Positions 23,041 through 55,200 of a stretch of 64,000 nucleotides of DNA are shown piece after piece (the stretch's first letter is position 1; the number at the start of each line of letters is the position of its first letter). The notes under the pieces are model-generated. The model made no database searches. It saw only the letters and a program-made list of their open reading frames with translations, and was not told where the DNA came from. This stretch comes from Vermamoeba vermiformis (lineage: Eukaryota). Position numbers and translations under genes: made by a program. The stretch is from positions 1-64,000 of the forward strand of contig JBEWZL010000233.1 in assembly GCA_045837725.1 (NCBI GenBank), given 5' to 3'.

Positions 23041-25461
23041 ATGCAATATATACATGTCCGAAATGTATTTCAATTATTTATTCCATTAAGCCCAGCCGGG
23101 AACGAGAACAAATTTTCGGTCACTCACTTGCCCGGCAGTAATATTGGCTTGACTTTGCACAACAGCGAAACCAACGAATATTTGCAATATTATTTACGGC
23201 TATATTCAACCTTCCCTGCTACTGAAAAAACAGAACAAGATCAATCGATCGCGTTAGTTTGGGCGAAAAGAAATTCGTATCAGCTTCATAGCGATGGCAA
23301 TATTTTAGGAATAATATTAAAGCTTAAACTACAGCATCATGTTTTTGATTTTAGAAGAGTGAAGAAAACAACAATCAGATTCCACATTAATTGCTTCAGC
23401 TCGGGTGTATTGATTGGCCAAGCAACCTCATCATCGGTTGTTTTGTTGCCTAAAAAGCGCCAAGCTACTGCAATAGATTTTTCTGACGAAGGTAAGCCTA
23501 ATTAAAGCCAAAAGTTATTATTATCTTTCATATTTTTAAATATCAATAATCATGGCGTTATTTTCCAAATAATAGCATTAATTAGTGTATTTTAGAACTG
23601 ATGTTAATTTTGGACAGTTACAATACCAATGGTTTGGATGCAGGAGCTACAACCAACCACGGAAGATGCTCAGAATAGCGCTATTGGCGATAATAAGTTA
23701 TTAAGCGAAGCACTGTCGTTAGAGGATGGTTCTATTCAATATATTATGCCTTGGAATTCAGATCTAGAAGCGCAGTCAATCCAACATATTGGCGAGTACC
23801 CAACGGACGATTACGCAATCGATAATTATGATCATACCAGCAATGACAACGAGCAATATATGGTGCTGTATAGCGGCAATGCAGAAGTAATAGGAAATTT
23901 TCGCGCGTTGAATTTCTACAAAGCGTCCGACGTGCGGATCAAAGAAGACATCAGATTATTAAGCGAAGGTACGACATTATTATTAATGGAACTGGTAGCT
24001 AATGAGTTTATAGATCGAGATAGTAGGAGTGTGCTATTGAAGATCGACGGCGTTGAATACAAATTTAAACCCGGAGTCACATCCGCAACGCAGCGGAAAT
24101 TTGTTGGCTTTATTGCTCAACAGATCGAAGCTGTGGTGCCAGAGGCAGTGCAATTGATAGATGGGGTGCTGCACGTAGATTATCAATCAATTATTCCGTA
24201 CTTGAGCGAGTCTATTAAACAGAATTTTAACGACATTAAAAGCGGCACATCTGAGCGAGAGCAAATTAAGTTAACGGTCGATTTGTTATATGACGAGTAT
24301 TTATTAAGAGAAAAGAAGAGAGATGATATCCAGCAAACGCCTAAGCCTTCAACATTAGAGTCACAAAGGCCGCAGATCAGATCTCGATCCCTTGCACGAA
24401 TTCTACTCTACGTTATTATAAGTGCTGCAGTCATATCAAGCTTGGCCATTGGAGCTTATTTTGTATATACGAAGATTTACCCCGGCAACAAGCCACCAAG
24501 CACGGACCCAGAACCTCTCGCGCCGTCGTTCAATACCGAAACAGATCGAAAAGCGCTCATCGAATTCTACATTGCAACGAATGGCGGCAGTTGGAATTTA
24601 TCAACGAATTGGGTCACTGAAGCGGCGACGTGTCAGTGGTACGGAATAACGTGTTCAAATGACAGCAGAGTTGTTGGAATTGCATTGGAGAATAATTGTG
24701 TCAGCGGCACGTTGCCAGAATCGATTGGAAAACTCGATCAATTGAAGAATTTACAGCTCAAATACAATTATCTTTCGGGGACCATTCCGAATTCATTAGG
24801 AAGATTGCCTAATTTGGAAACATTGACATTGGACCAAGCAGCACCGAGATTGAACGGGACAATCCCCGAATTCACGTCGAAATATTTGCAAAGTGTTTCA
24901 ATAAGCAATGCGCAGTTCAGCGAACAGAAATTTCCCGATTGGCTGCAAGACAAATACGCCTTGATATTTTTGAAGTTGAACAGCGTTAATTTGACAGGCA
25001 CAATTCCAGCTTGGATTTCAAACTTGAAGAGCTTGCAAAAATTATATTTGGAGAGCAATTTATTGACTGGAGTAATTCCGTCGTTGCCTGCATCGCTCGA
25101 CACGGTAGTTTTAGCGAGGAATCAATTCACGGGCGACGTTCCCGAGTTTACGAACCCGAAGTTTTCGCAGCTCGATATGTCGAACAATGCGTTGAACGGC
25201 AATATGGACAAATTGATAACATTGCCTGCGATACTCGAGCTTTATTTGCAAAACAATTCATTGCAAGGCAGTGTTGCGCTCTCCGCTAGTGCATTGAAAG
25301 GCTTGCAAGTGTTGGACTTGTCGCACAATCGGTTGGAGTTTGCCGCCGCTGATTTATCGCAGCCTGTCAACATACAACAATGCAGCGCTGTAGCAAATAA
25401 TTTCGAGTGTCCCATACCGCAGTGGCTGATCAAATCATGTAACGCATCTTGTACAACATAG
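23041..25461 (+). CDS. MYRF/MrfA-like membrane protein: N-terminal beta-rich domain, peptidase S74 (ICA) domain, TM helix, LRR ectodomain
   Basis: Exon 1 (23041-23491) splices in frame to 23618, with a probable 45-nt intron at 23969-24013. GNFRALNFYKA-SDVRIKEDI..GFIAQQIEAVVPEAV..VDYQSIIPYLSESIKQ is S74. TM ILLYVIISAAVISSLAIGAYFVY; LRRNT DRKAL..NW..CQWYGITC; plant-type LxxNxLxGxIP repeats. Confidence 0.85.
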
Positions 25462-44929: not shown

Positions 44930-46760
44930 CTTACCAGATCTTTTTTATAGTGCAATACTGTCTAAAGAGTGTCTTATTTTTTGCATTTTTTAAATCGAGT
45001 GAATTGCTTTGGTTAGTGGTCTGTAACAATGCTCTGGCACTGATAGTGACTGTTGCTTCATCTCTTTTTGGGTTAAAGTTAACTCTTGTGCTGGTCCAGG
45101 TACTTGAATTGTCTTTGACTCCTTGATTTTTTCTGTAAATTTTTTTTATGGAGCTTTGATTTTACTTTCAATTTCATTTATATCTTGTTAAAATTAGCCT
45201 ATTAAGAGAACAGCTTACAGTGGCTTAGTTAAAAGACATGGGATTATCAAGCATTCACTGTTACCAGTTTGGAGGTACGTCTTGCTATTTTAACAGAATA
45301 TAATTTATACTGCGCTAATTTGGAGTGTAGGCTGAATGTTGAGCAAATGCTTGCATTAAACAACAACAGCAAAGGAGATAGTGTATTCTTTATTGTAGAT
45401 GGATTCAAAAGATATCAAGCAGGTAAGTCAATTATAAAGCACTAATAAATTAGCAGCTAACATTTAAGGCTGCAACTTGTGCTGTGGTAGATAAGCTGGT
45501 GGACTCTTTCTCATTTGTGCAGCTTGTGGAATTTACCACTTGTATAACCATTGAGTAAATTAATCAATTTATTTTTTAAGTGAAATTGAAGTTATGTGCT
45601 TAGTACTTACAGAGTGTGTTACTTCCAGTAGACTCTAGCTGTTGGACTGCCAAAACAAGTTGTGTGATAGTAATTGTATGGGAAAAAATTTGGCTGGGGC
45701 TTGACATTAAGTGCACCACCACTGGTACCAAAGCACAAAACAAGTCTGGCATCTATTTAATTTTGGTTACTTGGAATATCTTGTATCCAAGTACTTGAAA
45801 AATTATAAATAAAATTATAAATCACTTATCATCGGAGAAGGAACAAACCTACAGCTGCTTTCAGTTTCTGTTAAGCCAATACCTTTGCAGCATGGAAAAG
45901 TCGCTGGGCCCACTTTTATTACTACCTTAAACCCTTCTGTGACTTTCTGGAGTTGATGAATGAGCCTGTTACAACTCTCCTGACAGTAAAAAGATTTTAT
46001 TGCTGGATCAGAGCAGCAACATGAAGTACAGCACCAACAACTATGTCTCACACACCATCCTATTGCATCTTTTTCCAAGCTTCTTGATAATGCACCTGAT
46101 TGTAACCTGTCATTACCGAATCCAATTTTGTGAATGATTTGTAGCAAGTTTTATTAGTGCAATTAAACAAAAATTGTTTCCATGAAGCTTTTGTGTTCAT
46201 TAAAATGGCTGAAAATAATACAAATTTAAATACTACTACTGAGGAAGAGGCCCCAAAGGTGGAGAAGTTGCAATGAATCACGGATGCCTACTGGAGCACA
46301 AATATCCTGGTGCATAAATAATTTATTTGCATAGTAAATAATTTTTAAAATAATATTTTTCTATTTATTTTGATAAACACTGGATGGCAAAATCTTGTAC
46401 AACTGTGTAGCCCTGGAAATGGTTCACACACACAGGGGTATCTTCGTTGACGACACTCTTTGGCAGACTGAAATAAAAATGATTAAAAACTGCCACTATT
46501 ACTAACAATACTGCTTTGAGGCCTTAATCTACTTGTTCTCACACAAGATCTGTCCCCAAGTATCAGCTGGTTCTGCATGGCTTCTCCTGGGAAGTGGATC
46601 TGCGAAAAAACAGTTTCAACACGCAGAAAACCGAAGAGATGGTGTGGGAGATGTAGTACATCGAAAAAGTATTGCAAATGCACTATATTGCTACACAGAT
46701 GAAACTCCTGCTTAAAGACTGGTTCAGTGGGGCAAGAATGCAGCCATACTGGGAGAGCCA
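44930..46760 (-). pseudogene. Degenerate multi-exon Cys-rich coding remnant, probably TE-derived
   Basis: Broken ORFs (e.g. CVRHSCWCCTSCCC..FYCQESC, YYHTTCF) with stops, frameshifts and residual GT-AG sites. Region is almost CpG-free; boundaries approximate. Confidence 0.35.
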
Positions 46761-47035
46761 AACTGGCTACAAGTTTAGCTGCAAATACAAAATAAATATA
46801 TATAAAATCCAGATTGTTTATTCGAAATTTTACGGTGCATGCTCAATTGAGAAAATTACTCATCACAGGCCATAGGGTCCAGTGATACAACCATGAACAA
46901 ACCACTGTGGTTAAAAAACAGCCTGTTTTTACGCTGAAAATTCCTGCCAGGTAAACTCTGGCTTTAAAAACAAAGTTTATTTGTAAAATCAACGGGTATA
47001 AAAACAATGTATACATATCGATAGTAGTAGTATAT

Positions 47036-47060
47036 GGCAGATTCCACGAGTCTCAGATCA
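47036..47060 (+). repeat. Left TIR GGCAGATTCCACGAGTCTCAGATCA
   Basis: Reverse complement of 52166-52190 except for one base. Confidence 0.95.
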
Positions 47061-47155
47061 AAACAAAAAGATTTTAAAGAATTTATTTTGTAACAAAAAT
47101 AAAGTTTTTTGGCACAAAAAAAAAGGGAGCATTTGAAGATAAATAGCTAAGAAGT

Positions 47156-49202
47156 TTACAAACACTGCTCTTCAAATTGTTCCACTAACTCAGGGCATTG
47201 CAGTTCAGTCTCCCACTTCCACTCGTTATCACTATCAGGATAACCAAGCCACTTCACCATGTATTGGACTTTTCCTTTAACAGTGCGCTTTCCAACAACA
47301 GCTTCAACTTCATAGTATTCAACATCGTTGGGGATTGGTTCTGGAGCAGGAGGATTCAATCCTTTGGGATGCTTGATGGTTGTTGTTTTAGTTATTCTGT
47401 GTTGCCAGTAACCAACCACAAAGCCACGCTCACAAAGACCAAAATTGAAAGCCATGCAGTGGTCACAAACACAAGGCCATCGTCTCATCCACAAATTGTT
47501 TGAAGTTGACGAAAAGCAAAAATCATAGCAAGACTTTATGCCATTAATCGTCTCAACATCTTGTTCTGTGTCCTCCCAAGTGATGTTCAGCAGAGAAGCA
47601 GATCCCCCTGGCACAGTGTTCCAGTAGTCTGCCAACTGTTCAGGGGTATCTAAATAGCCATCTTCTTTCAGAACATGTATTTTGGCTTTCTTTTTCAGTT
47701 TGGCTCCACGACCATCGCACTCTCCCTTTCCATGGTAAGCAGGGTCAATAATCCAACGAAGACGTAGACCAAAGTTGCTGTGAACAGTAGTTCCCCAGTG
47801 CATCGATATTCTGTTCTTGAAATGCTGCATGCCACCATCAGACAGAATGATACAGTTTTTGACATCATCCCCAAGGTCAAGTTGTGGCAATAATGCAGCA
47901 AAAGCCTTCTGGAAAACCAGTGAAGAATGGGATAAGTAGGGAGTGACAAAGGCATGGTATGTTTTCAAAATGACAGGATGTTCAGCTGTACTATCTACCG
48001 AGTGGTGCCAAACAGTTGCAATTAGGACAGTGGACTGACGTCTTCCATAGAATGCATTTCCAACTTCAATTGAACTGACATGTGAATAGTTCATAAGAAA
48101 GTCCCATCGCATCATGACGGTGTCACTGGGAAGCTGCTTCTTGAGTTTGGCAATGACTTCTTTTTGCCACTGAACATGTTCTTTATGGTCTGAAGCCTTG
48201 TCAACTGCTGAGTGGTACTGTTGCATAAACTGGACTCTGGGGCCTTGATGAGGAATGTGAATCATCTGATTTGGTGCATGCTTGTCTCTGTCATTTCGCA
48301 AAGTGGTGCTTGCAGCGGGGATAGTCCAACGTTCAATTGCATCTGAATGTTCGATAGGACACTCGTCATCCCAACATTCACATTCCTTTGGACAAGTGTT
48401 TGAATGATTACAAACAGCACAGTAGGTGCATTGGCAAGTGCAGTTGGCGTGCCAAAATTTCCGAGATCTGGCAAGTAGCAAAGACCAATGTTTATCCAAG
48501 GCACATGTAGGACAGAGGCCAGAGTAATACGGTTGCAAGTAAACACAATCAGGGACCAAAGAATAGAATGTTGATTTGCCAACTCCTAGGGGAACATCAA
48601 CCTATGCCAGTATTTAGTATGATGTAGAAAAACGCTCAGAGCGTTTTGCTTACCTTGTACTTTAAAAACAGATCAGCAACTGTTTCTGTACAGTAATGCT
48701 TTGCCTCAAAGCTCCATGAGCCATCCAACTGTCTGCATCGCACAACATTTGACGAGTTTGCTGTTGGCCTACAGTGGTCCAGAATCCAATTTGTTACTGT
48801 GTTTTCTTTGACAGGCTTACGGGAGATGCGGTATTTGGTTGGGACAATGAATTTGTTGTGAACGCCAGTAAGTATGCGATCTATTCGGTTTTGTTCTACT
48901 CTCTTAATAGCTCGCTTAATGCTTTGCGGAGACACACCAAGAACATTAGCAGTTTGGATTGCATCCATCTCTGGGGTTAACACAGCAGCCAAAGAGCCTC
49001 TAAAATAACCAGAGGTACGTTCAGTTGACTTTGCAATACGTAAAGATTGACTGTATGTATGTAGTAAGCTGTGTTTAAGGCGCGCATTAGCTAGCACTTG
49101 AAGAGTTGGCTTGATGGCTGGTTGATCCAATACATCGAGAAGCATCGGTTCTACATCAGAATTGGGTAGTTGACGCAAAAGGTTGACTAGTTGTGGTAGC
49201 AT
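47156..49202 (-). CDS. Sola2-like DDD transposase with C-terminal chromodomain (2 exons; intron 48602-48653)
   Basis: VGKSTFYSLVP..LCPTC, WDFLMNY..EV..FY..QSTV, SDGGMQHFKN, HGKGECDG.G..K, CVCDHC. C-terminal YEVEAVVGKRTVKGKVQYMVKWLGYPDSDNEWKWETELQCPELVEQF. Reading frame intact. Confidence 0.85.
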
Positions 49203-51238
49203 TGTTAAAATAGTGTATGTAAAGAAAAACGCTCGGAGCGTTTTGATCAAAGTACTGTGCAGTAAGTTTAGACCAATAGGAAAGCAGAACAGTAAGGAAA
49301 ATAGCGTTCTTCATAGATTAGACCAATCACAAACAAGCACTCGTGAAATCCCAAAATCTCTTTTTTGATAAATTGGACCAATCACGAACAAGCAAAAAAA
49401 AAAAAACATTTTTGTGTGAAACATTTTATTTTACTTTTTTCGCTAACACGATGACCACAAAAGGCAAAAAATCTGTGGTGACCGAGGCTGAAGACCCGCA
49501 GTCGGTTCTGACCAAGTGGTTAAAATCTAACCAACCAATCACCATCAAACTCAGTCAAATGACAAAGCAAGGTAAATAACGAATAATAATTTTATAAAAC
49601 AAATTAAACAGTATTTTTAAAATTGGAAAAGTCGAAAGAACATTCTAACACCAAAACGCTCCGAGCGTTTTGCTACAAGCACAATTCTAATTTATTTTTT
49701 GTAGGTGATTATCGTCCTGTTACAGAAGAAGGCAAACGAACAATCGAAGAAAGAATTCTGCGAAATGGCAACGGCGACTTCAAAAAAGGTTTGGATCGCA
49801 CTGAGGCCTTCTTGGTGCAAGAAATTGAAAGCAAATCAAAAGTACAAGAGTACATGATTATTGGTGGCAACCACCGCTATCAAGTTTTCACAAAGTAGTA
49901 AGTACTAGCAAAACGCTCAGAGTGTTTTGTTTTACCATTGCTAAATCTTGCTTTTCCAGTAATGTCCCTGATTGGCCCTGCTTTGTTTTGCTTGCTGAAA
50001 AGGATGGCCGCAAAATGTCTGACGAGGAACGTGAGATAATTGCCGGTATGAACAATGCAAAAACTCAAGAAGGAACTGCCAAGGCAAGCTGGTTTGAGTT
50101 CTTCATGAAGCTAGCACGATATATTTCTATGCCTGGAGTCGTCGGAAAAGCTACTAATGGCAAAAAGTCGGTGAATTGGGAGAAAGTTCATCACTTATCG
50201 GTAAGTTCAGTACCCCAAACAAAACGCTCAGAGCGTTTTGCTTTCTTCATTTCATATTTTACAGCAGACATCAAAGCAAAACGCTCAGAGCGTTTTGTTT
50301 TACAATTGGTACATCAAGTTAGACGAAACAAAACGCTCAGAGCGTTTTGATTGTTAAGCAGTTTCTAACATTATGTTGTGTAGGGCAACCGAGATGGTCT
50401 ATCAATGGACTCTGCAAAAAAGCTGCACACTGTCTGGAACAAGCTCACTGATGGCGGCAAGATAAAGCTTGAAGAAACTGCAGTCTTCAAAAAACTTTAC
50501 GACATTCATTTGGAGCATGGCTTCGCAAATCCAATCAAACTGAAGAGCATGACAGATTGCAAGGAATTTTGGGCCCTTGATTCTTTCGATCAATTGGCTA
50601 TTTTTGAGGGGTACCTTGATTTTGCCAAGCGCATGAAAGGCAAGGTTACCCACGCCGAGTTCACTGGCATTGTTGCTAATCGCATCCATTGTATGGCCAT
50701 GGCTGATTACGTGAAAGAACAATGTCCTGAGGCAGATCTGTTGGAGGAATACATAGAAGCAATCTATGCACAAGTGGCAGAAGTTGGAGAACGCAACCGC
50801 TGAAGAAATGGATGTTCCGCTAATGCAACACCTGATCAAATCATTGGAGGCTGGCAAGCCAGTAAACTCTGTTAAGTTCCCTCATCGACCTAAGCCTGCT
50901 TTGGATGATGCAGAGGAACACAAAAGGAAGAAAAGAAAGTTGAGCCATTGGTAAGTTTAATTACAAAACGCTCTGAGAGTTTTGTTTATTTACCTGTTGC
51001 TAATTTGTTTACTTTATAAAGAAATCACCTTTGGCATCAAAAGCATCAAAATCGTCAAAACCTGCGTCTACTGCAGTTAATGTTACAGACACATCAAATG
51101 CAACAGCTGACAAGTCTGCCAAACAGGCGTCAAAAAAACGTAAGGCGGAGGAACCGGCAGCAGACAAAACAAACAAAAAACGCAAAGTTGATGAAAAGGA
51201 TTCGGAGAAGGTAGATAACAAAACGCTCTGAGCGTTTT
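48629..51238. repeat. Nine dispersed copies of the 19-bp palindrome AAAACGCTC-N-GAGCGTTTT
   Basis: Copies start at 48629, 49226, 49653, 49910 (1 mismatch), 50221, 50278, 50330, 50965 (1 mismatch) and 51220. All are non-coding. Confidence 0.95.
49271..49394. promoter_or_regulatory. Bidirectional promoter of the transposon with three CCAAT boxes
   Basis: GACCAAT at 49271, 49321 and 49376. A 27-bp direct repeat ATARATTRGACCAATCACRAACAAGCA at 49313-49339 and 49368-49394 lies between divergent ATGs 49202 and 49451. Confidence 0.6.
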
Positions 51239-51943
51239 ACTCTTTGCTTACTTTTTTGTGCTTAGCACACAGCCTGTCGTGCTGCACCGCCACAGAAGAG
51301 CTTCTCTGACAAGCTACCTACTGAAACTACATGGGACTTCCACTTCCTTTGCCGTTCTGCCAACGCACTTGGTTTCTTTGATGGGAAAAATGTCACTCCT
51401 GAAGCTTTGAAGCATGGGACTTACAACCCAAACTGGACCCATGGCTTGTTCAAACTCTCACCCAAGGAATTCTTGCGTGAGAAAGTCTCAACCACTGCCG
51501 CTGCATTGTTTCCTCTGCAACCTCCTGTTCAAGCTCTGCGCTACATCTTCACTGTGTTCTGCCCACCTGCTGGAGTCATTCTCGAATTGAACAACCCCTC
51601 TGGCTCTGGCTACATTGCTGCTGTCCTTGCAAGAAGATCATATGTTGGCTTCATTAAGTCCAATGCTTCATTGATGCAGTCAATTGGGGCTCATGTTGCC
51701 CGTTACCTGGCTTATGCTGCAGCTACACCAGAAGAATGCACAGCTCTTTTATCGCAGCTTACTGGTTCCAGTGTTGGTGACAAGATTGGTCCTGTGGAAG
51801 AGCCACTAACTCCTGCCAAAAATCGTTACAAGTTGGATGATACTCCTTTGAGTCCCCACCCTCCTTCTGCTAGCCATCCAGCCCCCTTGACTGCTGCCCC
51901 ACGCAACAATAACAGTCAACCAGTGGATGAAGAGTCCGACTGA
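49451..51943 (+). CDS. Transposon accessory protein: ParB/Sulfiredoxin-like N-terminal domain, helical region, K-rich linker, degenerate N6/N4-methyltransferase-like C-terminus (6 exons; apparent frameshifts in exon 4)
   Basis: YRPVTEEGKRTIEERI..YMIIGGNHRYQV..WPCFVL..EIIAGMNN is ParB-like; FPLQPPVQALRYIFTVFCPPAGVILELNNPSGSGYIAAVLARRSYVGF is MTase-like. Introns 49572-49704, 49898-49959, 50201-50383, 50951-51021 and 51211-~51265. Frame changes are needed near 50760-50800 and ~50920. Confidence 0.7.
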
Positions 51944-52165
51944 CCCTTTAATTTTGTTTGCTTTTTTCCTGTTGTAGGTTTTGCTAACATTCTTTCTAAT
52001 AAATATTCACCTATTTTACTTTAACTTTTTCAGTTTCCTTGCCTTACTTTAAATTCTATCTTTCAGTTTATGCGTTTTTTTATTCGTGTTTTTGTCTCAA
52101 AATAAATTCTACATTTGCATTACTCCTATTTATAATCAAATTTGTATCTGTTTTTCAGTGGTGAC

Positions 52166-52190
52166 TGATCTGAGGCTCGTGGAATCTGCC
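52166..52190 (-). repeat. Right TIR TGATCTGAGGCTCGTGGAATCTGCC
   Basis: Inverted match to 47036-47060. Confidence 0.95.
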
Positions 52191-52201
52191 ATATTGTACA
52201 G

Positions 52202-55200
52202 TTGACCTACTTCAACAGTTCCGATCAACGTGTACATATTCCGAGAGACACACTCCTGGCTCAAGTCCATGTCACTGGGCATGAGTACCCAGATCTCGGG
52301 TCTGATGCAGACGAAGAGATAGCACCAGTAGTCTACGCTACGCTGGTCACACAACAACCTTCTTCATTTGAAATAGGCGACTTGACTCCAGAGCAACGTG
52401 CACAGTTTGACACCTTCATGGCCAAGCACGGCGAGTTGTTTGAGAAGCCTAAACAGTGGGGAGCTTGCGTTGGAGTGCAGCACAAGATCGACTTGAAGCC
52501 TGGCACTAAACCGATCCGCAACTCACCACGACGAGCCCCACCCCAACATCAAAAGATTATTGACGAGAGCATCGAGGACATGCTGGCTAAAGGCATAATT
52601 CGCCCCTCCAAGAGTGCATGGGCAATGCCAGCGGTCCTGGTTCCAAAGAAGGATGGCACATGGCGGTTCTGCATTGATTTCCGTCAGCTCAATCACGACA
52701 CTGAGCTTGATGCATATCCCTTACCACGGTTAGAGGAGGCTCTTGACGCAATGTCTCGAGCGAAGTTCTTGTCAATCTTTGACTTGGCATCTGGCTATTT
52801 CCAAATCCCATTGCGCGAGGAGGATAAGCATAAGACAGCCTTTGTGGTCCGCAATGGACACTACGAGTTCAATGTCATGCCTTTTGGGTTGACCAATGCG
52901 CCGGCCACATTTCAGAACACTATGGATGATCTATTCAAGCCAGAACTTTGGAAATTCATTGTGGTCTACTTGCACGATTTGATTGTTTATTCGACAACGT
53001 TTGAAGAGCATCTTCAACACCTGGAGATTGTCTTCGACAAGCTACGCAAGGCCAACTTGTATCTGAACGCAAAGAAGTGCAAGCTGTTCCAGACGCGCGT
53101 GCCATATTTGGGTCACACCATCAGCATGCAAGGGGTTGAGCCCAATGACAAGAAAGTCGAAGCTATCTTCAAGCTACCGTCACCCACCAATGTAAAGCAA
53201 CTGCACACGTTCCTGGGGATGGCTGGTTACTACAGGCGATTTGTACCAAACTTCGCACAGTTGGTAGACCCATTACACGCGTTGTTGAAGAAAGACGTTA
53301 AGTGGACATGGGGCTCTGCAGAAGAGGCAGCAGTGACCAAGATTAAGAACCTGCTGACGGCGGCTCCAGTGCTGGCGTTTCCGCGATACGAAGACCCCTT
53401 TATATTACACACGGATGCAAGCAATGTGGGCCTCGGCGCAGTCCTGTCGCAAGTGCAAGACGGTCAGGAACGTGCCATCGCTTACTACAGCCGTGCTCTT
53501 CTACCTGCAGAACGTAACTATCACACCACTGATCTTGAATGTCTGGCTGTGGTCTCAGCACTCAAGCATTTCCGCTGCTATCTATTGGGCAGTCAATTTG
53601 AAGTGCAGACTGATCACAGTGCGTTAACCACCCTGTTGACACGCAAGGCTCCTGCTTCAGCTCGGTTGATGCGTTGGGCGTTGGCACTGCAAGAGTTTAG
53701 AGATTTCAAGATTGTACATAGGCCTGGACAAGCCAATGCTAATGCTGATGGTCTCTCACGGTTGGGGCATGAACAGGCTGAGAAGTTAGTCGTCAACGCG
53801 CTATTGCAAGCTCCAGTACAGCAATTTCAACTGTTCTGTGCCCATGGTACTACACAGAAACCTTCGCAGGTGCGCATGGATTACCCTGAGCTAGCGACTG
53901 CGCAGAAAGAGGACCCATTCCTCAGAGATATTCGTGCCACCTTGCTAGACAACAAGCTCCCTGAAGACGAAGTCACGGCAAAGGAAATCGCGCTGCTCAG
54001 AGATCAGTACGTTATTGAGAACGACGTGTTGCATCGCATCTACACGATAGAGTCAAGCCATCGTCGCTATCATACGCGCAAGCTGGTTGCCATTCCACAG
54101 AGCTGTGTACCTACGGTACTAGAGTCGTTGCACTGCAATATTGAAGGTGGACATCTGGGAGTGACTAAAACCTACGAGAAGATTCGCTTGCATTTCCACT
54201 GGCCCAACATGTATCGACAGATCAAGGATTTTGTTACTCGTTGCAGCACATGCGCACAGCGTAAGGCCCCAGCAAGAGCACTGCAAGGACACTTGATGCA
54301 GATTGATGCGACACAACAGTGGGAGACTGTAGGAGTTGACATTATGGGCCCATTGCCAATCACGAATGCGAAGAATCGCTACATTATTGTGTTCACAGAT
54401 TACGTGACAAAGTGGGTTGAAGCTTACCCCATGCGTGATGCAGATGCAACCACAGTGGCTCAGATATTTTGCAAGAAGATTATCACTCGGCACGGTGCAC
54501 CACGCAAGCTTATCTCAGACAGAGGCTCTGTATTCATGTCGGAATTGTGCTCTGCCATCTACGAGTACATGAGCATCGACAAGCTGTTCACAACTCCGTA
54601 TCATCCTCAGACTGACGGGCTGACTGAGCGTTTCAACAAGACGCTGGCTGAGATGTTGACGCCCTACATTGACAACAACCAAGCAAATTGGGACACGCTC
54701 ATCGAGGGAGTGCTTTATGCGTATCGAACATCGGAGCATTCCACGACACGCGAGACACCATTTCGGATGATGTATGGGCGCGATCCTTTCTTTCCGTTGA
54801 ATCGCATTTTCCCTACAAGTCTGGAGGAACCCTATGAGCCTAATGAGTTCACGAAGAGATTACACGAGAATTTCTCGGATGCACTCAAATTGGCGCAAGT
54901 GAATGCGCAGACAGTGCGAGCAGCTCAAGCTCGCAACTACAACATTGGACGCGAACCTGCCCTGTATGAAGTTGGACAGTTGGTCTGGTTCTACAACCCG
55001 AAGCGCATCAAAGGACAAGTTCAGAAGTTAAGTAAACTCTGGACTGGACCGTTTGTAGTGAAGGACAACTTAGCGCGAATGTCTATCAAGTCACAGATCT
55101 ACAAGGCAACAACGAATTTACTGTCAACATTGCGCGCATCAAACCCTGTGAAATATCTCTTGATGAAGCGAAACAAATGAAGTTGAAGGGTGCGCAAACC

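Follow-up and report, generated by a model that had tools for sequence, protein, structure and literature searches.

The 64,000-base stretch of DNA analysed here, referred to as the window, contains a cut-and-paste DNA transposon bounded by terminal inverted repeats (TIRs). The element spans positions 47036-52190 (5,155 bp) and has 25-bp TIRs, the left copy being GGCAGATTCCACGAGTCTCAGATCA (47036..47060, plus strand) and the right copy lying at 52166..52190 on the minus strand. The inverted-repeat pair extends over 34 nt when ATAT and the flank are included and is 91% complementary. ATAT flanks both ends, at 47032..47035 and again after the right TIR at 52191..52194, and is probably a 4-bp target-site duplication, known from one element copy only; because ATAT is itself palindromic, it could instead be TIR sequence. 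The element encodes two divergently transcribed genes, a transposase on the minus strand and a second gene (gene 2) on the plus strand. They share a promoter/leader (49203..49450) with three AGACCAAT repeats that resemble CCAAT boxes (49273, 49323, and 49378). Non-coding DNA makes up approximately 1,192 of 5,173 bases (23%) of the element. Host genes elsewhere in the window encode LRR proteins and a copper ATPase.

The transposase of this copy is intact. Its two exons are open frames on the minus strand: exon 1 of 183 codons (48654..49202) and exon 2 of 481 codons (47159..48601), followed by a stop codon at 47156-47158. The sole predicted intron, of 52 nt (48602..48653; GTAAGC...CATAG), has both junctions in phase 0. 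The protein ends in a chromodomain (47168..47314, minus strand; residues 430-478; Pfam PF00385, E 2.1e-13). Exon 2 has six homologues with 50-70% identity, and the chromodomain is also present in five of the six.

Gene 2 is predicted to have six exons separated by introns with GT-AG ends and to encode a protein of ~660 aa. Exon 1 (49451..49571) is followed by exons 2 (49705..49897) and 3 (49960..50200), which carry the first half, including IIGGNHRY, and the second half of a ParB_N-like domain, respectively. Exon 4 (50384..50950) encodes a helical middle region, exon 5 (51022..51210) a Lys/Ser-rich linker with KKRK motifs that may act as a nuclear localization signal, and exon 6 (51266..51943) the C-terminal half of an N4/N6 DNA-methyltransferase-like domain. 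The joined exons 1-4a yield 324 stop-free codons. The exon 4 frame is broken in this copy, with frame A open to 50800 and frame B from 50757 to 50951, and a return to frame A is needed for exon 4 splicing; no indel at this break is found in the contigs of sequencing run X1. In a relative, only the exons of gene 2 are conserved, and three intron positions and phases are in common. The related metagenomic element L001, of which L003 is a near-identical copy, has a transposase 70% identical to that in the window and gene 2 exons with 48-57% identity.

The original prediction described a ParB/Srx-like N-terminus in gene 2 and proposed a search for a ParB fold plus a helix-turn-helix (HTH) domain. 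The N-terminus of the spliced protein resembles ParB_N in register, albeit weakly and at low scores. Two ParB_N HMMs, one from 13 and one from 37 bacterial domains, give it 7.3 bits (E 2.4e-4) and 9.0 bits (E 7e-5; Z=1 for both), values reached by 2 and 3 of 3000 shuffles, respectively (p about 1e-3). For the L001 protein the corresponding scores are 5.1 and 6.3 bits, attained by 1 and 0 of 3000 shuffles. With hhalign, gene 2 aligns to ParB_N over 88 columns, the whole domain in register (P 0.0024; also P 0.00056), and the alignment covers GxxRxxA, the following strand, and the acidic helix. The arginine box reads GGNHRY in gene 2 and GGSHQF in L001. In a protein-language-model search, ParB_N is the label of the highest-ranked named Atlas clusters (0.93; 9/30 matches), and exon 3 as a second Atlas query gives no usable match. 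Single exons, however, contain no ParB_N detectable by Pfam, PHROGs, NCBIfam, PDB phmmer, or tblastn. Downstream of the ParB_N core, no HTH_ParB-like domain that would read DNA is detected.

The last exon of gene 2 shows homology to N4/N6 DNA methyltransferases, namely to their C-terminal half with motif X/motif I. FPLQPP...NNPSGSG in gene 2 corresponds to HPTQKP...DPFSGSG in the methyltransferases, and a BLASTP comparison of the motif X + motif I region with P0011, a PF01555 protein, gives 42% identity over 60 residues. Profile matches include a PHROG family annotated 'methyltransferase' (E 1.7e-5) and NCBIfam (E 0.004), and the only two PDB profile matches are both methyltransferases. An exhaustive search of 1.84e9 proteins returns five matches only, one of them a bona fide N6_N4_Mtase (E 9.5e-4), and gene 2 stays below Pfam's own threshold for PF01555. 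The relatives P0007 and P0008 have a degenerate motif I. Through its motif X + motif I region, gene 2 resembles orphan beta-class N4/N6 methylases (PF01555) and, putatively, phage and plasmid ParB-methyltransferase fusions; none of three phage methylases examined has a ParB domain. Unlike the PF01555 methylases, gene 2 has neither the DPPY-type catalytic motif (motif IV) nor the catalytic N-terminal half of the fold, which is not found in the window. Because this half is missing in this lineage, the gene 2 protein is probably a binder or scaffold and not an enzyme. The methyltransferase-like C-terminus places gene 2 with the ParB+methylase accessory genes of Sola1 and other algal transposons.

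The 19-base palindrome AAAACGCTC-N-GAGCGTTTT occurs nine times in the window. A search for AAAACGCTCNGAGCGTTTT with up to two mismatches finds these nine matches, compared with 0.00 in 100 dinucleotide-preserving shuffles, and the exact half-site AAAACGCTC is confined to the same nine copies. Seven copies are perfect, and those at 49910 (GAGTG) and 50965 (GAGAG) have one mismatch each. The centre base is A in five copies, T in two, and G and C in one each, flanked by C and G in 9/9 copies, and the symmetry usually extends to 21 nt (C...G, 7/9 copies). Among perfect palindromes with 8-base arms and a 0-3-base spacer, this is the only one that recurs in the window (7 copies); the 11 others are each single-copy.

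All nine copies lie within 48629-51238, in non-coding DNA of the element. Palindrome 1 (48629..48647, centre A) starts 7 nt past the 5' splice-site GT of the transposase intron, and palindrome 2 (49226..49244, centre G) lies in the promoter/leader, 23 nt upstream of the transposase ATG. The remaining seven are distributed over the five gene 2 introns as 1, 1, 3, 1, and 1. Intron 1 (49572-49704) holds palindrome 3 (49653..49671, centre C) and intron 2 (49898-49959) palindrome 4 (49910..49928, centre A, right arm GAGTG). Intron 3 (50201..50383, plus strand) has three copies, all with centre A, that start at 50221, 50278, and 50330. Introns 4 (50951-51021) and 5 (51211-51265) contain palindromes 8 (50965..50983, centre T, right arm GAGAG) and 9 (51220..51238, centre T). 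The palindrome is absent from the exons of both genes and from 385 nt of subterminal/3' non-coding DNA, and it constitutes ~27% of total intron sequence. By arithmetic on the gene models, the chance that nine of nine fall in non-coding DNA is ~2e-6, or ~3e-5 with the three tandem copies counted as one. The count, the confinement to this element within the window, the near-invariant arms around a variable centre, and the placement are all as originally predicted. The flanks had been called unrelated, which holds for most copies but not for the 3' sides of 49910 and 50278, identical at 20/30 bases. The copies had also been said not to be tandem duplications, a description that does not fit intron 3, where they are arrayed in tandem, 57 and 52 nt apart.

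The palindromes could be a functionless relic of how the introns arose, either as short paralogous introns or through a tiny palindromic insertion spread by an introner-like or intron-transposition process. Descent from an intron-less prokaryotic-type gene would make all gene 2 introns gains, and four introns follow a common plan of splice site, 0-14 nt, palindrome, 27-38 nt of pyrimidine-rich tail, and AG. The palindrome accounts for ~40% of the length of the 52-55-nt introns, and the flank common to 49910 and 50278 would also be expected from such an origin. Yet most flanks are no more alike than background, in contrast to the near-invariant arms, a difference that argues for selection or active homogenisation. 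Variant copies likewise differ in flanks, not arms: in run X1 the listed changes in intron 1 all flank the palindrome (49646; 49675/77/79), and the two listed changes inside a palindrome are at the free centre (49919) and at 49923, the latter restoring GAGCG. Palindrome 4 accordingly appears in a DNA run as a variant with GAGCG and centre G; one run X1 contig is without one 52-nt unit of intron 3. One palindrome lies in the promoter, outside introns, none has flanking target-site duplications, and a relative retains the motif at like places despite 30-50% coding divergence. A relic origin is very improbable.

That relative is L001. A query with the outer arms from the window alone (AAAACGC-N5-GCGTTTT, up to three mismatches) finds five matches in L001, compared with a mean of 0.22 in 1000 shuffles, none of which reaches five. 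Three are in gene 2 intron 1, one is upstream of the transposase ATG, and one is in the transposase intron, where it starts 7 nt past the GT as in the window. The inner arm bases are CTC/GAG in the window and CAT/ATG in L001, and the bases around the centre are TC-N-GA and AT-N-A(T/C), respectively. Both mirrored pairs thus differ between the elements yet stay complementary, a covariation that rests on two lineages, with the L001 copies decayed. L004, a more distant element (47% identity) in which the promoter and transposase intron are present, has no such motif. A related element thus carries related palindromes at equivalent places; these decayed sites, with inner arms that appear symmetrically different, are new.

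The palindromes may also act as RNA, forming 9-bp hairpins in the pre-mRNA or leader or, where copies pair, long stems, which would control splicing (through retained introns, looped-out exons, or back-splicing) or feed small-RNA production. The placement fits an RNA role equally well, as all nine copies are in transcribed non-coding DNA and a copy lies 7-21 nt past the 5' splice site in five of six introns. Single palindromes fold at -8.3 to -10.1 kcal/mol (z -2.9 to -4.2), and the fold of intron 3 reaches -54 kcal/mol (z -9.7), its copies 1 and 2 being able to pair with each other as a 27-bp stem. Intron 3 also has sub-threshold Rfam matches that resemble miRNA precursors, although these are far below the gathering scores (27 vs 90 bits), and only in intron 3 are the hairpins long enough for Dicer-type processing. 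In the sense RNA the single change in 49910 results in a G-U pair, whereas the one in 50965 creates a G-A mismatch. In L001, the wobble fits opposite strands, copy 2479 in the gene 2 sense only and copy 2595 in the antisense only, which looks like random CpG-type decay and not selection on a single transcript. Moreover, the C and G beside the centre would fall in a 3-nt hairpin loop, where complementarity is not needed, and are complementary in 9/9 copies. Palindromy up to the centre base points to dyad symmetry as at protein-dimer sites. An RNA role is considered unlikely.

Predicted DNA sites could be read by a protein other than that of gene 2, either the N-terminal HTH region of the transposase, for autoregulation or as an accessory site of the transpososome, or a transcription factor of the host that activates the divergent promoter. 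Weak HTH signals in transposase exon 1 (HTH_29, E 0.004, under the Pfam cut-off) favour such a reader, as do the position of the promoter/leader palindrome next to the three CCAAT-like boxes and the absence of a recognisable DNA-reading domain from gene 2. However, the TIRs and subterminal regions, the usual transposase targets, contain neither motif nor half-site, and a host factor would be expected to have further sites elsewhere in 64 kb with host genes, which the window lacks. A reader encoded by the element and evolving together with its site also accounts for the symmetric difference between lineages better than a conserved host factor does. Another reader is accordingly quite unlikely.

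The favoured reading, to which we assign a probability of roughly 45%, is that of a compact transposon with a ParB-methylase-derived gene 2, in which the palindromes are predicted double-stranded DNA docking sites for a dimer of the gene 2 protein. The accessory gene would derive from a prokaryotic or phage-type ParB-N4/N6-methyltransferase fusion, and its dimer would recognise the 19-21-bp palindromes. The layout would be parS-like in that many sites cluster near the shared promoter, within the central 2.6 kb of the element. Introns would house the sites because so compact an element has hardly any other non-coding DNA to spare, and local tandem duplication may increase their number there.

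Bacterial ParB-parS partition and CTP-clamp systems (Pfam PF02195, PF17762) rely on clusters of short palindromes close to the gene. A ParB_N-like core and such clustered palindromes are common to both; here, in contrast, neither a ParA partner nor HTH_ParB is detected, the arginine box is GGNHRY, and the system is nuclear and eukaryotic, with sites inside introns. VANC of Arabidopsis VANDAL21 belongs to a group of anti-silencing proteins whose function is experimentally shown. VANDAL21 motifs are short, not palindromic, located in non-coding/intronic parts, and amplified as tandem repeats, and specificity varies between related elements. The present element likewise has an accessory protein of its own, short non-coding/intronic motifs, tandem amplification, and a putative specificity that differs between lineages. 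Its protein family is unrelated to VANC, its motifs are palindromes, and its function is predicted from sequence.

Closer counterparts are found in other eukaryotic transposons. Sola1-1_Ec32 of Ectocarpus has a ParB-like + N4C/N6A-methylase gene opposite its transposase, whose product 'may ... bind and epigenetically modify their own transposon' (PMC12477816). As judged by described architecture, both are cut-and-paste transposons with an accessory gene on the strand opposite the transposase, whose product combines a ParB-like N-terminus with N4/N6 methyltransferase sequence. Sola1-1_Ec32 is 21.5 kb and encodes a protein of 1104 aa (PMC12477816), compared with 5.2 kb and ~660 aa here, where only the C-terminal methyltransferase half is detectable and motif IV is not found. 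The passages of that paper on the accessory gene describe no cis sites for Sola1-1_Ec32. PAG3 of a Plavaka element in Bostrychia moritziana combines a ParB N-terminal domain with a 2OG-oxygenase beside tandem inverted-repeat arrays, and its authors propose self-binding (bioRxiv 10.1101/2025.02.11.637652). Both that element and this one thus unite a ParB-domain accessory protein and repeated inverted repeats in one eukaryotic DNA transposon. They differ in transposon superfamily and effector domain, and the PAG3 repeats are arrays beside the gene (bioRxiv 10.1101/2025.02.11.637652), whereas here single sites are spread across introns, promoter, and transposase intron. Self-recognition by a ParB-domain protein in its own transposon is, from the descriptions in these two sources, already published as a proposal.

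The dispersal of the sites into every intron of the element is new. We infer that the gene 2 protein is the binder and that it binds as a dimer, so that the element's own protein would find the element's own DNA. As a consequence, the ParB-like protein may load or spread, and the chromatin of the element would be marked or shielded, or its bidirectional promoter regulated.

The palindrome AAAACGCTC-N-GAGCGTTTT occurs nine times in the 64-kb window and is not found in any of 100 shuffled sequences. The search used the full palindrome, CAAAACGCTCNGAGCGTTTTG, as its pattern and permitted up to two mismatches. All nine copies lie between 48629 and 51238, within a 5,155-bp DNA transposon (47036-52190) that encodes a transposase on the minus strand and a second gene, gene 2, on the plus strand. 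One copy starts 7 nt past the GT of the transposase intron, and another is located 23 nt upstream of the transposase ATG. Introns 1, 2, 4, and 5 of gene 2 carry one copy each, while intron 3 carries three copies with spacings of 57 and 52 nt. The palindromes occupy ~27% of the total intron sequence and are absent from the exons and from the 385 nt of subterminal non-coding DNA. There is no exact half-site in the window outside of the nine copies, and among the perfect palindromes of the window, this is the only one that recurs. The original prediction of nine palindromes, with none in the exons or elsewhere in the window, is borne out by the pattern search and the shuffles (9 vs. 0). The array is parS-like in that several short palindromes are clustered close to a parB-like gene, and it is a real, non-trivial feature.

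The host genes in the window, which code for LRR proteins, a copper ATPase with several exons, and a PQQ propeller protein, are likewise free of the palindrome. In one ORF of the window (23608-25461, plus strand), Peptidase_S74 (endosialidase chaperone) is joined with plant-type LRRNT_2 and LRR repeats, an unusual pairing. The viral contigs that were searched contain neither the palindrome nor relatives of the element.

Sola1 transposons have short terminal inverted repeats (TIRs) and a 4-bp target-site duplication. Here, an inverted repeat (47027-47060 and 52166-52199) yields 25-bp TIRs with ATAT on both sides, though these flanks come from a single copy of the element and ATAT is self-complementary. 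The transposase is composed of exon 1 (48654-49202) and exon 2 (47159-48601), separated by a 52-nt intron (48602-48653), and its reading frame is intact. The only Pfam match is a C-terminal chromodomain (PF00385, E = 2e-13; 47168-47314, minus strand); Pfam has no Sola model, as PMC5751038 also states. Among 5.8e9 proteins, only six homologues of the transposase were found, and five of these have the chromodomain, which might direct the element into heterochromatin. Three CCAAT-box-like AGACCAAT repeats, ~50 nt apart, lie between the start codons of the two genes (49273-49382).

The copy of the element in the window sits against a Gypsy retrotransposon. The Gypsy pol ORF (52169-55180, plus strand) has 1003 codons, encodes the reverse transcriptase, RNase H, and integrase, and begins within the right TIR of the DNA transposon. 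The left flank (46500-47026) has no matching gag or protease frame, so the transposon did not simply insert into an intact Gypsy element.

Gene 2 is predicted to start at 49451, with six exons separated by five introns that have GT-AG ends. These introns are predicted because exons 1 to 4a (4a being the first, open part of exon 4) join into 324 codons without a stop, because a related metagenomic element keeps the exons (48-57% identity) and not the introns, and because three intron positions and phases are common to both elements. Three RNA runs with the same species label gave 4, 2, and 0 partial reads, which mapped at A-rich stretches, contained no joints, and were not usable; run X13 does not count as a test. 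Exon 4 of the window copy is out of frame from ~50757-50803 to ~50909-50950, and two frame changes are needed to keep it open (50757-50950), the second in an A-rich run. The contigs of the DNA run X1 show no indel at this break, so the copy of gene 2 in the window is probably defective. Either this copy is a pseudogene or the break is an assembly error that recurs consistently. An extra intron was rejected upon reading the sequence because a GT in the right phase is lacking, and TGA as a sense codon was rejected because TAA still closes frame A. No homologues were found for exon 3 (searched with the 'longer' setting) or exon 4a, and the protein collections searched have no spliced or intron-less homologue of the ParB_N-like region.

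Related transposases are encoded at four metagenome loci, and none of these contains the exact palindrome. The transposase at locus L001 has 70% identity to that of the window (L003 is a near-identical twin of L001), and the transposase at L004 has 47%. When L001 was searched with only the outer palindrome arms, which were derived from the window, five degenerate copies were found, compared to 0.22 expected, and at least five copies occurred in 0 of 1000 shuffles. Three are in intron 1 of gene 2, one is upstream of the transposase ATG, and one is 7 nt past the GT of the transposase intron. The inner bases are AT-N-A(T/C) in L001 vs. TC-N-GA in the window. Both mirrored base pairs therefore differ between the lineages, with palindromy kept. 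For the most part, the remaining differences in the L001 palindromes are CpG transitions of the sort that an old, decayed copy would show. L004 is missing the palindrome although its promoter and transposase intron are present, and L002 is without these regions. The decayed L001/L003 element (L001 1-1680) is present in two different metagenome records; its homology to gene 2 extends 75 codons into exon 4, beyond which the sequence is unrelated.

Within the organism, the X1 contigs have changes beside the intron 1 palindrome and none inside it. Two changes occur within palindromes, one at the centre base (49919) and one at 49923 that restores GAGCG. One contig is short of one 52-nt unit of intron 3. 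In the shared promoter (49247-49394), the X1 contig differs from the window by 9 substitutions and by 2 indels within 148 nt, beginning 3 nt past palindrome 2, and this contig has no differences over 2.1 kb of the transposase. Either hypervariability or recombination would account for the differences in the promoter.

In this transposon lineage, the palindromes form a cis feature that is conserved and specific to the element. They fit the sites of a dimeric DNA-binding protein because of their full dyad symmetry to the centre, free centre base, clustering at the promoter, tandem amplification, and symmetric change between lineages. Their placement would be explained equally well if they act as RNA: a single palindrome can fold into a hairpin (-8 to -10 kcal/mol), and a 27-bp stem can form in intron 3. 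Full palindromy is mildly against a role in RNA, as is the decay in L001, which is inconsistent between strands. When the L001 copies were examined for wobble pairs that would point to an RNA hairpin, the result was not consistent from copy to copy. At 50215-50353, pairing of neighbouring intron 3 palindromes results in Rfam matches, all below threshold, to a number of miRNA-precursor families. If the palindromes are protein-binding sites, the obvious candidate for their reader is the element's own ParB-like accessory protein.

The ParB_N-like domain at the N-terminus of gene 2 is split by intron 2. Home-made ParB_N HMMs were built from 13 and later 37 bacterial domains, seven of which were confirmed by Pfam. 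These scored the spliced gene 2 at 7.3 bits (13-domain) and 9.0 bits (37-domain), scores that were reached or exceeded in 2 and 3 shuffles out of 3000, respectively. The L001 orthologue scored 5.1 and 6.3 bits, which 1 shuffle and no shuffle out of 3000, respectively, reached. Alignment of gene 2 to ParB_N by hhalign gave P = 0.0024 (88 columns, with the whole domain in register) and P = 0.00056. A protein-language-model (Atlas) search with exon 2 ranked ParB_N clusters first, at 0.93, and the same search with exon 3 had no usable match. These three partly independent lines weakly suggest that the N-terminus is ParB_N-like. The original prediction of a ParB/Srx-like N-terminus is thereby retained at low strength, but single exons of gene 2 gave nothing meaningful for ParB in Pfam, PHROGs, NCBIfam, phmmer against the PDB, or tblastn against phages.

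ParB clamps bind CTP through a GERRxR arginine box and an ENLQR box. The residues aligned to the arginine box are GGNHRYQ in gene 2 and GGSHQFH in L001, which keep one arginine and none, respectively. GMNNAKTQ is aligned to the third ParB box. The helix-turn-helix (HTH) that was expected beside the ParB domain did not materialize: using a profile of ParB_N plus ~120 following residues from 13 ParB proteins, HTH_ParB was not detected past the ParB_N core by HMM or hhalign, and only the core aligns. AlphaFold models exon 4a as entirely helical, but with a pLDDT of 47.1 (3-sequence alignment), too poor for a fold search.

The C-terminus of gene 2 is methyltransferase-like. An exhaustive search of 1.84e9 representative proteins with the last exon, exon 6 (225 aa), found only five relatives. 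One of these, P0011, is a genuine DNA methyltransferase of the N6_N4 type (PF01555, E = 4e-42), which exon 6 matches at E = 9.5e-4 among the 1.84e9 proteins over motif X and motif I. FPLQPP...NNPSGSG of exon 6 is aligned with HPTQKP...DPFSGSG of P0011, and BLASTP gives 42% identity over 60 residues. Exon 6 is also matched by a PHROG methyltransferase family (E = 1.7e-5) and an NCBIfam DNA methyltransferase model (E = 0.004), and the only two matches in a PDB profile search are both methyltransferases (E = 0.4). Exon 6 is below the Pfam gathering score for PF01555, and the SAM-binding region of that family, motif X (HPTQKP) and motif I (FxGxG), is found in it. Its AlphaFold model (5-sequence alignment, pLDDT 36.8) is too poor for a fold search.

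The catalytic motif IV, (D/S/N)PP(Y/F/W), was not seen in any exon. NPNW in exon 6 was rejected as motif IV; it aligns with a conserved W upstream of HPTQKP and is too near motif I. No N-terminal half of a methyltransferase was found in the window by tblastn with the N-halves of P0007 and P0010. These two proteins (192-336 aa), to which the C-terminus of gene 2 is most closely related, have an apparently whole methyltransferase-like fold with degenerate motifs IV and I. Their N-terminal catalytic half is degenerate: by reading, the place of motif IV is YTCTG in P0007 and YQCMG in P0010, and BLASTP leaves that half unaligned to P0011. P0007 and P0010 may be a family of pseudo-methyltransferases, and the methyltransferase part of gene 2 is probably inactive. 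Among the matches to P0011, no phage ParB-methylase fusion was found in the three genes examined, which are methylases without ParB, and PF02195 is in the records of 0 of 3 phage loci.

The architecture of an accessory gene with ParB and methyltransferase domains is already in print. According to PMC12477816, Ectocarpus Sola1-1_Ec32 has a gene opposite its transposase whose 1104-aa product combines a ParB-like domain with an N4C/N6A methyltransferase domain, and its authors propose that such a protein may bind its own transposon and modify it epigenetically. The gene arrangement of the Vermamoeba element matches the one described there. Bostrychia Plavaka elements encode PAG3, in which a ParB N-terminus is coupled to a 2OG oxygenase, alongside tandem inverted-repeat arrays, and self-binding is suggested in the Bostrychia genome preprint (10.1101/2025.02.11.637652). 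Our search of the literature, which covered article text, found no further account of the topic and no description of sites inside introns.

The original prediction of a self-recognition system agrees with the symmetry, clustering, and lineage change of the palindromes, all of which fit dimer sites. It is held back by the undetected HTH_ParB, the weak ParB signal, the broken copy, and the probably inactive methyltransferase, and the idea has also been published for other transposons. We give roughly one chance in four to a working eukaryotic analogue of ParB-parS. In such a system, dimers of the ParB-like protein, which might act as nucleotide-gated clamps, would load at the roughly nine palindromes carried in introns and would spread over the element's chromatin. 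The private address of the element would co-evolve with its reader (CTC/GAG here and CAT/ATG in the sister lineage), and the methyltransferase remnant would remain as a non-catalytic DNA- or partner-binding module.

ParB-domain accessory genes of eukaryotic transposons have been recognised only recently, and their function is conjectural. The published examples come from giant elements of algae in which the repeats form tandem arrays, whereas the Vermamoeba element is small. Its sharply defined 19-21-bp candidate site and the symmetrically altered site of the sister lineage make self-recognition directly testable, and introns can store cis sites in a compact element. If the binding is true, this would be the second independent sequence-specific self-recognition system of transposons after VANC, and one made of bacterial chromosome-partition parts.
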